Source of the DNA: Deltaproteobacteria bacterium
Lineage (GTDB): Bacteria > Myxococcota_A > Polyangia > Fen-1088
Assembly: GCA_033763315.1 (NCBI GenBank)
Contig: JANRKS010000034.1
Coordinates: 64,001-128,000, forward strand
Length of the DNA stretch: 64,000 nt
Direction of reading: 5' to 3'
Notes under the pieces: model-generated
Told to the model about the DNA's origin: nothing
The model's database searches: none
The model's input: only the letters and a program-made list of their open reading frames with translations
In this document: positions 6,637 through 12,214 of the stretch, piece by piece
How the letters are laid out: every line of letters starts with the position of its first letter
Position numbering within the stretch: the stretch's first letter is position 1
Program-made: the position numbers and the translations under genes

Positions 6637-7122
6637 ATGGACGTACCAGCTCTGCATCTTTCTTATCTCAAGGTCGGCGATCTAGCGCGCCGCACCGGAA
6701 AGACAGTGCGCGCGATCCACCTCTACGAGGAGCTGGGGTTGCTGGCGCCCATCCGGTCCAAAGGTGGCTACCGCCTTTACCACGCCCGGGCCGTTGATCG
6801 CGTCGAGTGGATTCAGAAGCTGCAAGATATGGGCTTCTCCTTGACCGACATCAAGGCGTTTTTGCAGGTGTGGGAGCAAAGCAGCACCGCTCCCAGCGCG
6901 ATGCAGACGGTGCGTGACATCTTTTCGGAGAAGCTGCGCGAAACCAACGACACGTTGGCGCGTTTGACGAAGTTGTCGCGCGAGTTAGAGGAGAGTTTGG
7001 CTTACCTCGACAGCTGCAAGTCGTGTGAGCCGGTTCATACGCAACAACAGTGTGGTTGTTGCGACATGCACGGCCACGAAGGGCATGCGCCCTTGCTGGT
7101 GGATGGCATCACCCGGCACTAA
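6637..7122 (+). CDS. MerR-family transcriptional regulator with Cys/His-rich C-terminus
   Basis: MerR HTH LKVGDLARRTGKTVRAIHLYEELGLL...GGYRLY...GFSLTDIK, coiled coil, tail CKSCEPVHTQQQCGCCDMHGHEGH. Confidence 0.93.
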   Translation: MDVPALHLSYLKVGDLARRTGKTVRAIHLYEELGLLAPIRSKGGYRLYHARAVDRVEWIQKLQDMGFSLTDIKAFLQVWEQSSTAPSAMQTVRDIFSEKLRETNDTLARLTKLSRELEESLAYLDSCKSCEPVHTQQQCGCCDMHGHEGHAPLLVDGITRH

Positions 7123-7140
7123 ACGTTTGAAGGAACCACG

Positions 7141-8358
7141 ATGGCTCTAAAATTCCCGATCTACATGGACAACAACGCCACCACGCCGATGGATCCGCGT
7201 GTGCTTGAAGCAATGTTGCCGTACTTCACAGAGCATTTCGGCAACTCTGCCAGCCGCTCGCACGCGTATGGCTGGGAGGCCGAAAAGGGCGTTGAGAAGG
7301 CGCGCGAGCACGTGGGTGAAAGCATTGGCGCCTCGGGCAAAGAAATCGTTTGGACTTCGGGTGCCACCGAATCCGACAATCTGGCGATCAAGGGCGCAGC
7401 GCACTTCTATAAAGACCGCGGCAACCACATCATCACGTCGCAAGTCGAACACAAAGCTGTGCTCGATACGTGCAAACGCCTAGAAAAAGAAGGCTTTGAC
7501 GTCACGTATTTGCCCACGCAGGCCGATGGCCGCATCAGCGCTGATTCGGTGGAAGCGGCGATGACCGACAAGACGATTCTTGTGTCGGTGATGTTGGCCA
7601 ATAATGAAGTGGGCGTGGTGAATCCGATTGCCGAGATCGGCGAGCGCGTCAAAGCGCGCAAGGCGCTGTTCCACGTGGACGCTGTGCAAGGGCACGGCCG
7701 CATCCCGTTCGATGTGGACGCCTGCAAAGTGGATTTGGCGTCTTTGTCCGCCCATAAAATGTACGGGCCTAAGGGCGTGGGGGCGCTTTATGTGCGTCGC
7801 AAACCACGCATTCGTCTTGAAGCGATGATCGATGGCGGTGGCCATGAGCGGGGCATGCGGTCTGGCACGTTGAATGTGCCGGGCATCGTGGGGTTCGGCA
7901 AAGCCGCGGCGCTTTGCATGGAGCTCATGCCACAGGAATCCAAACACAGCTTCGAGTTGCGCGAACGGTTGCGCAAAGGCATTCAGGCGCGCGTCAGCGA
8001 TACGTTCGTCAACGGTTCCATGGAGCACCGCTTGCCGGGCAACTTGAACATCAGTTTTGCGTACATCGAAGGCGAATCACTGCTGATGGGGCTCAAGGAC
8101 GTGGCTGTTTCGTCTGGTTCGGCCTGTACGTCGGCTTCGCTTGAACCGTCTTACGTGTTGCGTGCGTTGGGCGTCGAAGAAGAGTTGGCGCACACGTCGA
8201 TACGTTTTGGTATCGGCCGCTTCAACACCGAGGAAGAAGTGGATTACGTCATCGATTTGGTTTCACGCAAAGTGGGCAAGCTCCGTGAGCTGTCACCGCT
8301 TTACGAAATGGTCCAAGAAGGTATCGACATCAAGTCGATTCAGTGGACCGCTCACTAA
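7141..8358 (+). CDS. iscS: Cysteine desulfurase IscS
   Basis: [28 protein letters not shown]-terminal [18 protein letters not shown]. Confidence 0.98.
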
Positions 8359-8385
8359 GGTTCGGCATCAAATAAGGGGATCGTC

Positions 8386-8814
8386 ATGGCATATAGCGAA
8401 AAACTTCTGGATCACTACGAGAACCCACGCAACGTGGGCAGCTTGGACAAGAACGACCCGCACGTGGGAACGGGTCTTGTGGGCGCGCCGGCTTGTGGCG
8501 ACGTTATGAAGCTGCAAATCCGCGTGAACGACGACGGCGTTATTGAAGACGCGCGCTTCAAGACGTTCGGCTGTGGATCCGCCATCGCGTCCTCGTCTTT
8601 GGCCACCGAGTGGATCAAAGGCATGAGCGTTGATCAAGCGATGCAAGTGAAGAACACGCAGATTGTGGAAGAGTTGAATCTTCCGCCGGTGAAGATTCAC
8701 TGCTCTGTGTTGGCCGAAGACGCGATCAAAAGCGCCATCGCCGATTACAAATCAAAGCAATTGGGGCGGCCAGCCGCGGCAGCGTCCGCTGAATCTGCAT
8801 CCGCCGCTAAGTAG
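8386..8814 (+). CDS. iscU: Fe-S scaffold IscU
   Basis: MAYSEKLLDHYENPRNVG, APACGD, FGCGSA, LPPVKIHC. Confidence 0.98.
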   Translation: MAYSEKLLDHYENPRNVGSLDKNDPHVGTGLVGAPACGDVMKLQIRVNDDGVIEDARFKTFGCGSAIASSSLATEWIKGMSVDQAMQVKNTQIVEELNLPPVKIHCSVLAEDAIKSAIADYKSKQLGRPAAAASAESASAAK

Positions 8815-9268: not shown

Positions 9269-9919
9269 ATGATTTGTTGGTCCTGCCAAAAGAACGTTGC
9301 CGCCACGGAGTTTTGTTCCGCGTGTGGTGCGATTCTGCCACTTGATGGCCGCCCCGACCACTTCACTCTGATCGGCGCGCCGATGCGCTTCTCGCAAGAT
9401 ATGGCCGCCCTTGAGCGGCGCTATAAAGAGTCCACGCGCGCTGTTCATCCCGATAAGTTTGCGCGGGCCGACGCACAAGCGCGCCGCGCGGCCATGCAAC
9501 GCACAGTGGCCTTGAATGAAGCTTGGCGAACGCTGCGAGACCCGATCGCGCGTGCCGAGTATCTCGTGCGCCTTTTGGGCATTGATGTGGGCACAGAAGA
9601 CGGCACGCTTCGGCGCACGGAAACCGGGCAGGAGAAGGTTGCCGTTGATCCCACATTGCTGGCCGACATGATGGAAAAACGCGAGGCCCTCATGGAGGCG
9701 CGCGAGCAAGAGGATTACGCTGCCTTGGCAAGGCTGGCCCGGCAGGTGCGCGCCAGCTACGAGCAGGCGCTTTTGGAAGCGCAAACAGCTTTGGATAGGC
9801 AGGCCGCGGGCGACACCGAGCGTGCCGCAAAATGTTTGGTGGCGGTTCGATACTATCGCCGCTTTCTTGATTCGTTCGAAGACGGTGGCCACGCGTCGCC
9901 AGGAGCACAGCATGGCTGA
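9269..9919 (+). CDS. hscB: Co-chaperone HscB with N-terminal CxxC-CxxC module
   Basis: J-domain HPD motif, [18 protein letters not shown]-terminal CWSC...CSAC. Confidence 0.93.
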
Positions 9920-11867
9920 AGCGTTATTTCAGATCTCAGAACCAGGAGAGTCGCGGTCGAAGGAAGCCTGCAAGGGTCGCGCGGCTGGGATTGATCTTGG
10001 CACAACAAACTCGCTCATCGCGATCGTGAATGCGGGCGAGCCCCAGTGCTTGCCTGACGAACGGGGCGAGGCGTTGGTTCCTTCCGCCGTTTATTACGGG
10101 GCGGACGGAACGATAGCGGTTGGCGCGCGGGCGCGGCACGAGTTGGCATTGGTGCACCCCAAGGACACGATTGTTTCGGTCAAGCGATTCATGGGGCGCG
10201 GGCCAAACGACGCGGAGGCCACGCGCAAGCTAACGCCCTACGTATTTGCGCCCAGCGCGGCTTCGGATCCGGTGGTGCGATTCTCTGTGGCGCAAGGCAA
10301 ACGGGCCGTTACCCCGATTGAAGTGTCAGCCGATATCTTGCGGGCGCTCAAACAGCGAGCGGAAGCGGCTTTGGACGGTCCTTTAGATGGCGTCGTGATC
10401 ACGGTGCCGGCGTACTTCGACGATGGCCAGCGGCAAGCGACGCGCGACGCTGGACGCTTGGCGGGGTTGGAGGTGTTGCGCTTGCTCAATGAGCCCACGG
10501 CGGCGGCCTTAGCGTACGGCCTGGACAAGAAGGTGGATGGCACCTTTGCCGTGTTCGATTTGGGTGGTGGCACGTTCGACATATCGATCTTGGTGCTGGA
10601 CGGCGGCGTGTTCGAGGTGAAATCAACAGGTGGCGATTCGGCCTTGGGCGGCGACGATTTTGATCGCGCGATCGCCGAAGTGCTGCTGGCGCGCGCGGGC
10701 GAAGATGCGGCGGCGGGTGGCAACGCGCAAGCGGCCCGGGCCGTGCTTGACGCAGCCAAGCGGGCCAAGGAAGCGTTGACGACGGCTCACGAAACACCCG
10801 TCTCGGTCACACGATCGGACCGGTCAGTGTGGAACGGCGTATTGACCCGTGCGGAGATGGAAGCGGCTTGCCAACCGGTGTTGAACCGATGCGCGCCCGC
10901 ATGCAAGCAGGCGATGAAAGACGCACACATTACAGTGGGAAATCTCGACGGCGTGATCCTGGTGGGTGGGGCCACGCGGATGCCGCTTGTGCGTGCGTTC
11001 GTCAAAGAGCTGTTCGGGCAAGAGCCTTTGGCTGACATCGATCCTGATCAGGTGGTGGCGCTGGGCGCCGCAGTGCAGGCTGAATTGCTGGCCGGCGGTG
11101 ACAACCCCGGCGACATCGTGTTGCTGGACGTGGTGCCTTTGTCACTCGGACTTGAGATGATGGGCGGTGTGGTGGAAAAGCTGATTCACCGCAACAGCAC
11201 CGTGCCGTGCGGCGCAACGCAGACGTTTACGACTTACGCTGACAACCAAACCGGTTTTGACTTGCACGTGGTGCAAGGCGAGCGCGAGATGGCACACGAA
11301 GGCCGGTCGTTGGCGCGCTTTAAGCTCACGGGCGTGCCGCCCTTGCCTGCGGGCATGGCGCGCTTGGAGGTGACCTTCACCGTGGACGCCGATGGCATCC
11401 TAAGTGTGTCGGCGCAAGAGTTGATGACAGGGCAAGTGGCCAGCGTGCAAGTGAAACCGAGTTATGGCCTCACGGACGAAGAGGTTGAACGCATGCTGCT
11501 GGATTCGTACGCGCACGCTGATGAAGACGTGCGCCTGCGTTTGCTCACCGAGCAACGCGTGGAAGCCGAACGAATTTTATCGGCCACACGCGCCGCGCTT
11601 GCCGCCACGCCCGAGCTTCTGCAGGGCGATGAGTTGCCGCGCATCGAAGAGTCGATGGCGGCGCTGGAATCGCTCAAAGGCGGCACGGATCACAACGCCA
11701 TTCACAAAGGCATCGAGAACTTGGATCTCACGTCCAAGAACTTCGCGGCCCGCCGCATGAACCGTGCGCTTGAACAGGGTTTGCGCGGCCGCGATTTGGG
11801 CGTCATTGAGCATGAAATTGAAGAGCACAAGGTGAAGTCACACGGAAGTTCGGAAGCTTCCCACTAA
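9912..11867 (+). CDS. hscA: Fe-S chaperone HscA (Hsp70)
   Basis: LFQISEPG N-terminus, [32 protein letters not shown] before ATG 9912. Confidence 0.96.
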
Positions 11868-11878
11868 GGTCACACGCA

Positions 11879-12214
11879 ATGCCAAAAGTTCGTTTTTTGC
11901 CAGATGGAATTGAAACCGAAGTGGCCGCAGGCACGAGCATCCTCGAAGCCGCTCGCCAATGTGGCGCGCACGTGGGGTCTGCGTGCGGTGGCGTGTGTGC
12001 TTGTTCAACGTGCCACGTTTATGTGAAAGCCGGGTTTTCCGAGCTTTCAGATGTGCAAGAGAACGAAGAGGACATCATCGAAAAGGCTTTCGATGTGAAA
12101 GCCTCGTCGCGCTTGGGCTGCCAGGCACGCATGCAGGGCAGCGGCAGCTACGAAGTTGAGATTACGGCGGAAAGCCGCAAGGCGTTCTTAGACGAACACC
12201 CTGACCTTCGTTGA
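11879..12214 (+). CDS. fdx: ISC-type [2Fe-2S] ferredoxin
   Basis: CGGVCACSTCH and SRLGCQ motifs. Confidence 0.95.
   Translation: MPKVRFLPDGIETEVAAGTSILEAARQCGAHVGSACGGVCACSTCHVYVKAGFSELSDVQENEEDIIEKAFDVKASSRLGCQARMQGSGSYEVEITAESRKAFLDEHPDLR

Follow-up and report, generated by a model that had tools for sequence, protein, structure and literature searches.

A MerR-type protein encoded ahead of iscS that probably does the job of IscR in an uncultured myxobacterium

We analyzed a 64,000-nt stretch (further referred to as the window) of contig JANRKS010000034.1 from assembly GCA_033763315.1 of a Deltaproteobacteria bacterium, a genome of 7.63 Mb that is 90.85% complete. The window contains the genes for the assembly of iron-sulfur (Fe-S) clusters, iscS-iscU-iscA-hscB-hscA-fdx, and the gene directly in front of them encodes a MerR-family protein with four conserved cysteines in its tail. 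In this uncultured myxobacterium the MerR-type regulator probably does the job of IscR. It is very likely a dedicated local regulator of isc, acting through a 22-bp palindrome upstream of its own gene, and the position of this palindrome makes repression the likelier mode of action, rather than activation. For the whole explanation, that is, an autoregulated MerR-isc operon controlled by a holo-repressor with a Cys4 Fe-S sensor, we estimate a probability of about 0.5. Synteny, cysteines and operator are kept across dozens of genomes, which is more than chance. Genes were called from the list of open reading frames (ORFs), and families were assigned by profile scans with curated equivalog cut-offs.

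The regulator and its conserved cysteines

The features of the studied unit are listed below.

6637..7122, + strand: MerR-family regulator gene, 161 aa; winged helix-turn-helix (wHTH), long dimerisation helix (residues 85–127), Cys4 tail
7015..7062, + strand: codons of C127-x2-C130-x8-C139-x2-C142, a conserved motif and putative sensor module
6584..6589, + strand: probable −35 hexamer TTGACA (sequence prediction)
6607..6612, + strand: probable −10 hexamer TACACC, separated from TTGACA by 17 nt, the last 3 nt inside the operator (sequence prediction)
6610..6631, no strand: 22-bp operator candidate, a perfect inverted repeat ACCCTTACGT-AA-ACGTAAGGGT (10+10), from the palindrome search
7141..8358, + strand: iscS, cysteine desulfurase; NF010611 679.1 bits (cut-off 548), TIGR02006 661.4 bits (cut-off 643.2)
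8386..8814, + strand: iscU, scaffold; TIGR01999 231.8 bits (cut-off 192.4)
8846..9181, + strand: iscA-type gene for an A-type carrier; TIGR00049 102 bits (cut-off 58.8)
9188..9919, + strand: hscB, co-chaperone; TIGR00714 73.9 bits (cut-off 46.75), HSCB_C 2.8e-12
9912..11867, + strand: hscA, chaperone; NF003520 834.2 bits (cut-off 620)
11879..12214, + strand: fdx, [2Fe-2S] ferredoxin, the last gene; Fer2 4.7e-12

The regulator matches the MerR_1 (PF13411, 4e-16), MerR (PF00376, 2e-11) and MerR-DNA-bind (PF09278, 2.2e-10) families and has the layout of MerR proteins, with an N-terminal wHTH followed by a long coiled-coil helix, predicted to dimerise, and an effector region. Its tail consists of C127-K-S-C130, EPVHTQQQ, C139-G-C141-C142, D-M and H145-G-H147-E-G-H150. 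The translation is thus identical to the Cys/His tail described in an earlier note made from the letters of this DNA (the sequence-only reading). The comparison with SoxR, CueR and ZntR that this reading proposed was made with curated equivalog models, by which the regulator is none of them: it scores 55.2 bits with the SoxR model TIGR01950 (cut-off 116.9), 74.4 bits with the CueR model (cut-off 147.4) and about 57–60 bits with the ZntR model (cut-off 167.95). The scores with the CadR (57.3 bits, cut-off 151.45) and MerR (59.9 bits, cut-off 150.85) models are equally low, and the match to HspR (6.3e-10) is also under the curated equivalog cut-off.

The AlphaFold2 model of the regulator (mean pLDDT 85) comprises the MerR wHTH and a helix at residues 85–127. 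Its top structural match is SoxR (Foldseek E 6e-6; VIA Z 12.8 and 12.6), although only approximately 1 Z above TnrA and GlnR (Z 11.7–11.9), MtaN, HiNmlR and CadR. The fold matches also include CueR, and C127 is aligned to the start of the metal-binding loop of the latter. A protein-atlas search with the tail residues 118–161 yielded a SoxR-family fragment cluster at 0.83, which is under the meaningful level.

Conservation was assessed in two sets of genomes. The first comprised 41 related genomes including that of the window, 32 of which contain a full-length ortholog at E<=3.6e-42: 23 of the 24 other genomes of the same family, the single miss being a genome that is 70% complete, and 8 of the 16 genomes from other families of the class. 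In all 32 cases iscS lies directly downstream on the same strand, at gaps from −4 to 59 nt. Besides residues of the DNA-binding domain, C127, C130, C139, C142 and P152 are invariant in the alignment of the 32 proteins.

The second set consisted of 301 evenly drawn Myxococcota genomes, with matches at E<=1e-20 in 100 and at E<=1e-40 in 78 (counted by hand). Best-hit loci were fetched for 66 of these 78 genomes; the other 12, from the same class, are outside the count. A cysteine desulfurase gene directly follows in 64 of the 66 loci (the exceptions are L099 and L100), and its product is 52–100% identical to IscS of the window in 63 of the 64 (39% in L102). Pooling of the loci gave 117 distinct proteins, 92 of them iscS-linked. 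The motif C-x2(3)-C-x7-9-C-x2-C is present in 91 of the 92, with the 2/8/2 spacing in 73; the protein of locus L080 lacks the fourth cysteine. Fifteen of the 91 proteins have no histidine within 12 residues after the fourth cysteine, and an additional cysteine like C141 occurs in 16 iscS-linked proteins bearing the motif. Hence, the Myxococcota search suggested by the sequence-only reading confirmed both the location of the MerR gene in front of iscS and the conservation of cysteines, but of the proposed Cys/His tail only the four cysteines are general, the histidines and Cys141 being lineage-specific.

A profile search against 1.84 billion representatives retained 204 clusters at E<=1e-30. 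The strict CxxC...CxxC pattern was seen in 82 of the best 150 of these 204 clusters; many others are fragments or have C-x3-C as the first pair. The named relatives are all metagenome-assembled genomes labeled Polyangia, Myxococcales, Myxococcota, Haliangiales or Polyangiaceae, and one motif-bearing representative is named Candidatus Krumholzibacteriia.

Operator, promoter and gene neighborhood

The palindrome ends 5 nt 5' of the ATG of the MerR gene in the window and its genus. Its right arm, with at most two mismatches, is found in 31 of the 32 ortholog upstream regions, and the site is present in the remaining region as well when more context is taken; outside the family, some genomes carry a shortened palindrome, ACCCTTACGTAAGGGT. 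The 7.63-Mb genome contains no second copy of the operator with up to four mismatches besides the isc site, and in looser scans chance hits would dominate. Thus, the gene stands first in isc and has a palindrome on its own promoter, as expected of a functional analogue of IscR, with binding and co-transcription being predicted. The four-Cys MerR subfamily as such is recognized by cysteines following the dimerisation helix, a 22-bp palindrome upstream and the position before isc, all of which are found here.

The predicted promoter is conserved along with the site. TTGAC begins 36–41 nt before the right arm of the operator in 22 of the 24 same-family loci, and the best −35/−10 pair across the loci has a 16–18-nt spacer. 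Relative to the end of the −10 hexamer, the palindrome begins at −3 to 0 nt in 21 of the 32 loci and at +1 to +14 nt in seven of the eight loci from other families. In the genus of the window the −10 hexamer is weak (TACACC; TAAACC in L004 and L005), and relatives have better ones (CATATT, TATAAC). With these predicted promoters the site would span roughly −10 to +15 of the transcription start, which is the position of a repressor. The classical activator geometry, with the operator within a 19–20-bp spacer, is not that of the conserved predicted promoter; this geometry characterizes the activator mechanism and is no criterion for belonging to the MerR family.

Two other interpretations of the palindrome were considered and rejected. 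A classical MerR promoter with the −35 box in the left arm and the −10 box after the palindrome would have to use hexamers such as ATTACC and TAGAGT; these are weak and lack conservation in the genus, where TCGACA follows the site and the ATG is only 5 nt past it, and the TTGACA promoter with the 17-nt spacer was therefore preferred. As to an RNA hairpin, the predicted start falls inside the palindrome, and the site is located 29–62 nt from the start codon in at least eight relatives, so that the palindrome goes with the promoter rather than with the ribosome-binding site.

Paralogs outside isc also carry palindromes. In family f46, second copies of the gene (the only copies in two f46 genomes) retain the four cysteines and do not lie beside iscS. 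The paralog is directly followed by the gene of an extracytoplasmic function (ECF) sigma factor in six of the seven loci scanned (L094, L100, L101, L104, L106, L107) and by unrelated genes otherwise. Palindromes related to the isc site (ACCCTGACGT..ACGTYAGGGT type, e.g. ACCCTGACGTTAACGTTAGGGT) were found by pattern before eight of nine paralogs, and the ninth locus has a palindrome with 14-bp arms and the same core. The paralog half-site has G or A for T at one position, e.g. ACCCTGACGT, and the DNA-binding helices of the paralogs differ systematically from those of the isc-linked proteins. As the ECF-linked paralogs have a related palindrome, the palindrome type appears to go with this regulator subfamily. 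Some of the ECF-linked paralogs have TTGACG in the left arm, which gives their promoters a classical MerR look.

A more distant group of four-Cys MerR proteins (L108–L120, L123, L124), common in family f15, has the pattern EC-x2-C...FP..C-x2-C...LW and is found next to genes for a Lon-substrate-domain protein and GTP cyclohydrolase I/II. No isc-type palindrome was found before the genes of this group (0 of 12). One member, L110, is located directly upstream of iscS.

The sequence-only reading described a tightly packed isc run, and this is borne out by the ORFs and the family scans, with 18 nt between the stop codon of the MerR gene and iscS. Two products are assigned at the level of a broader family: the A-type carrier encoded at 8846..9181 scores 88.3 bits with the IscA equivalog model (cut-off 150.6), and the ferredoxin 91.2 bits with the ISC-type ferredoxin model TIGR02007 (cut-off 132.1). 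The hscB gene starts at TTG 9188, where the ORF opens, or at the alternative ATG 9269. The ORF of hscA opens at 9822, its profile match begins at ORF residue 34, and the probable start is ATG 9912, overlapping the hscB stop codon. The unit stops at fdx, past which a convergent gene has its end (12229). Before the J domain, the N-terminus of HscB (window positions 9269–9340) contains the pattern C-x2-C-x9-C-x2-C, which we take to resemble the tetracysteine Zn module of eukaryotic HSC20-type co-chaperones.

Upstream of the unit the following features are located.

6316..6519, + strand: cold-shock gene; CSD match 5.3e-18
6527..6558, + strand: terminator-like hairpin after the cold-shock gene; 14-pair stem with 10 GC pairs, 4-nt loop, then ATCTGTTGTT

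The hairpin agrees with the upstream terminator noted in the sequence-only reading, although the T-run behind it is weak, and it is the upstream boundary of the isc unit. Two further ORFs of the window deserve mention. The one at 13645–16050 encodes an 801-aa Ser/Thr-kinase-like protein with a low-complexity middle part, in which the motif NEPQWAD (variants SEPRWAD and NEPQWVD) occurs four times. The one at 4162–6177 (671 aa) is an apparent fusion of a nucleotidyltransferase-like N-terminal and a class-V aminotransferase-like C-terminal part, as judged from the translation by eye.

Proposed mechanism and rival explanations

In the proposed mechanism, a single autoregulated operon would comprise the MerR-type gene together with iscS-iscU-iscA-hscB-hscA-fdx; DNA binding to the palindrome, sign of regulation, cofactor and co-transcription are all deduced from the sequence. 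A dimer of the regulator would occupy the 22-bp palindrome, abutting or overlapping the −10 box and the predicted start, and would repress by blocking RNA polymerase, unlike MerR activators, which remodel a promoter with a 19–20-bp spacer. The Cys4 module after the dimerisation helix would be the sensor of Fe-S or redox status; it is placed where SoxR holds its [2Fe-2S] cluster and CueR and ZntR their metals. The module would most likely bind an Fe-S cluster supplied by ISC itself, with the holo form acting as the repressor; that an Fe-S cluster is the sensed cofactor has, in our view, an even chance. Loss of the cluster upon high Fe-S demand, iron limitation or exposure to oxidants would release the promoter. 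This would be the same negative feedback as that of IscR and RisR, on a different fold.

The distribution of the SUF system is relevant to this mechanism. SufB was not found in the studied genome (90.85% complete). Within the phylum sample it is present in 12 of the 78 genomes with the subfamily vs 171 of the 223 others (hand count; the genomes are related). Among families with the MerR-iscS pair, SufB is present in 1 of 23 genomes of f7, 1 of 5 of f19, 0 of 3 of f11 and 2 of 10 of f31; among families without the pair, in 26 of 26 genomes of f25, 18 of 18 of f39, 10 of 10 of f40 and 9 of 9 of f32. Family f46 has both the pair and SufB. Given the counts of 12/78 and 171/223, the subfamily resides for the most part in lineages that have ISC only, in which one would expect isc to be under homeostatic control.

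The strongest rival is a Zn(Cys)4 thiol switch, in which oxidants would form disulfides, zinc would be lost and the protein would leave the operator, so that isc induction would follow oxidative or thiol stress and involve no Fe-S sensing. Zinc-releasing switches of the disulfide type are known from RsrA and Hsp33, and C-x2-C-x8-C-x2-C is typical of zinc knuckles. The spacing is variable (x2 or x3 inside the first pair, x7 to x9 from the first pair to the second), and the same module with a related palindrome before ECF sigma genes at six of seven paralog loci fits a general stress sensor. On the other hand, members of the subfamily repeatedly precede genes of Fe-S assembly, are enriched in lineages with ISC only, which need homeostatic feedback, and have their module at the place of the SoxR [2Fe-2S] cluster. 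We consider the thiol switch unlikely, though worth keeping in mind. A direct metal sensor working as a classical MerR activator, with the Cys4 loop binding Fe(II) or another thiophilic metal and activating isc, seems improbable. It would agree with the best sequence-model matches (CueR, ZntR, MerR, CadR), with the JGI automatic name of relatives, 'copper efflux regulator', with the 22-bp palindrome, a length typical of MerR operators, and with TTGACG in the left arm of some ECF-linked paralogs. However, all equivalog scores are far under the cut-offs, the isc promoter has an optimal 16–18-nt spacer with the operator at or after the −10 box and not between the boxes, no metal efflux gene is nearby, and the only operator of the genome is at isc.

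The remaining rival makes the MerR-type protein an auxiliary or unrelated neighbor and assigns isc to one of the Rrf2 proteins of the genome, acting like RisR. RisR of Myxococcus xanthus, named by the sequence-only reading as another regulator, is indeed an Rrf2 protein (group IS6) whose gene lies upstream of suf; with TtGAC-N7-GTCC as its binding site, it controls isc and suf, being a holo-repressor on the isc promoter (PMC9973013). Rrf2 (PF02082) has two matches in the genome, on contigs C36 and C3, the window's contig being C34, and IscX (PF04384) was not found in the genome at the same 90.85% completeness; the earlier statement that the window has no Rrf2/IscR or iscX gene is thus correct. 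With the IscR equivalog TIGR02010 (cut-off 207.55) the Rrf2 proteins reach just 57.8 and 69.1 bits, neither gene lies near Fe-S assembly genes, and the isc MerR-type protein matches MerR families only, without a match to TIGR02010 or Rrf2. Nevertheless, both Rrf2 proteins retain three cysteines (91/99/105 and 107/117/123), and the 10/6 spacing in the second equals that of the RisR ligands C92/C102/C108 (PMC9973013). The best relatives of the second protein are encoded directly upstream of sufB in all four genomes of a SUF-bearing sister family, but the identity is just 34–39%. The core GAC-N7-GTC occurs in only 2 of the 32 isc upstream regions, and throughout the phylum sample the MerR gene keeps both its operator and iscS beside it. 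Rrf2 control of isc in place of the MerR-type protein is, in our judgment, also hardly probable. Hence, the proposal that this protein stands 'instead of IscR' holds in that no IscR equivalog is present, and needs the correction that two three-Cys Rrf2 proteins, one of them like suf-linked Rrf2, are encoded elsewhere.

The RisR-like Rrf2 gene (locus L002, contig C3:26739-30137, gene 1351-1953, − strand) would have its cysteines at 92/102/108 if the start is Met16, and is followed on the same strand by a gene for an RpoD-like sigma factor. In the window, TTGAC-AGGGCG-GTCCC (6584-6599) resembles a RisR box and overlaps the −35 hexamer; it has an N6 and not an N7 spacer and is not conserved in L004 and L005.

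Several observations weigh against a cluster-sensing MerR-type repressor of isc. The two Fe-S-type Rrf2 regulators could also act on isc. The CxxC...CxxC pattern is also the classic Zn(Cys)4 motif, and from a single site MerR proteins can both repress and activate. The −10 hexamer TACACC is weak and the transcription start is a prediction. The pLDDT over the cysteine region is only 61–77, and a PDB sequence search with tail residues 118–161 gave chance matches (best E 0.79). Since the same motif is present in paralogs encoded before ECF sigma genes, the Cys4 module would be a general sensor and not specific to isc. The sampled genomes are kin and not independent samples. Finally, out of 22 listed sequencing runs 20 contain the stretch or part of it, including one RNA run (share 0.06), and the three contigs of this sole RNA run span 6300–6476, that is, the cold-shock gene only.

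Significance and comparison with known systems

To our knowledge, all characterized regulators of Fe-S assembly are either Rrf2 proteins (IscR, RisR and related ones) or the ArsR-type SufR. The literature search found no account of isc or suf being regulated by a MerR-type protein, in agreement with the earlier suggestion of an undescribed system. In the passages covered from a 2024 review on metallostasis, SoxR and NmlR are named among three redox-sensing groups of MerR proteins, and nothing is given for Fe-S biogenesis (PMC11672702). What is new here is the combination, not described before, of a regulator fold and a kind of feedback that are each known; the analysis adds the geometry of the isc promoter, the finding that the site is unique, the association with ISC-only lineages and the caveat of the RisR-like Rrf2 protein.

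If the explanation is true, the MerR-fold regulator is an independent solution to the same feedback problem and, beside SoxR, a second cluster- or thiol-sensing design in the MerR family. It would explain how an essential pathway is controlled in many uncultured ISC-only myxobacteria, and it makes a prediction that is easy to test, as it involves a single protein, a single 22-bp site and a single operon. Reuse of the sensor module for a stress response is suggested by the ECF-sigma-linked paralogs. A broader generalization, which we put forward only tentatively, is that these proteins form a third structural class of dedicated regulators of Fe-S biogenesis after Rrf2 and the ArsR-type SufR, characterized by the MerR fold, an Fe-S Cys4 loop and repression at −10/+1. 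In Polyangia with ISC only and in other Myxococcota, this class would have taken the place of Rrf2-type control, and its paralogs with a half-site differing in one base would drive an ECF sigma stress regulon.

Among the known systems, IscR is likewise the product of the first gene in iscSUA-hscBA-fdx and has a cysteine-based sensor, and autorepression is predicted here too. IscR, a [2Fe-2S] protein of the proteobacterial isc operon, has the Rrf2 fold with three cysteines and a histidine, whereas here a MerR wHTH and a coiled coil are combined with four cysteines; the IscR regulon has two types of sites, compared with a single site in the studied genome. RisR is a regulator of Fe-S biogenesis from the same phylum, but the present protein is MerR-type, its gene is located at isc, and no SufB was found in its genome. 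CueR, ZntR, CadR/PbrR and MerR are the best sequence-model and PDB sequence matches and share cysteines in the post-helix loop and a palindrome of approximately 22 bp; they differ from the isc MerR protein in the cysteine pattern, the metal-efflux targets and the classical promoter geometry. HspR, GlnR and TnrA are similar in the DNA-binding domain, and here, too, the operator over the core promoter would imply repression. These proteins have no Cys4 tail and sense chaperones or glutamine synthetase, and the HspR gene is at the end of its operon, in contrast to the isc MerR gene at the beginning.

SoxR (TIGR01950; PDB 2zhg, 2zhh) has the same fold and, like the isc MerR protein, a Cys4 module directly after the dimerisation helix. 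SoxR acts on a single dedicated target, soxS, and a single dedicated target promoter is likewise predicted here, given one operator genome-wide. The SoxR operator lies inside a long spacer, and the isc operator is placed at −10/+1, its predicted promoter having a 17-nt spacer; the SoxR target is a divergent or separate stress gene, and the predicted target here is the regulator's own isc operon. As the sequence-only reading anticipated, the cysteine spacing differs as well: the SoxR cluster motif is C-x2-C-x-C-x5-C according to the review (PMC11672702), vs C-x2-C-x8-C-x2-C in the window and the conserved C-x2(3)-C-x7-9-C-x2-C of the iscS-linked proteins.

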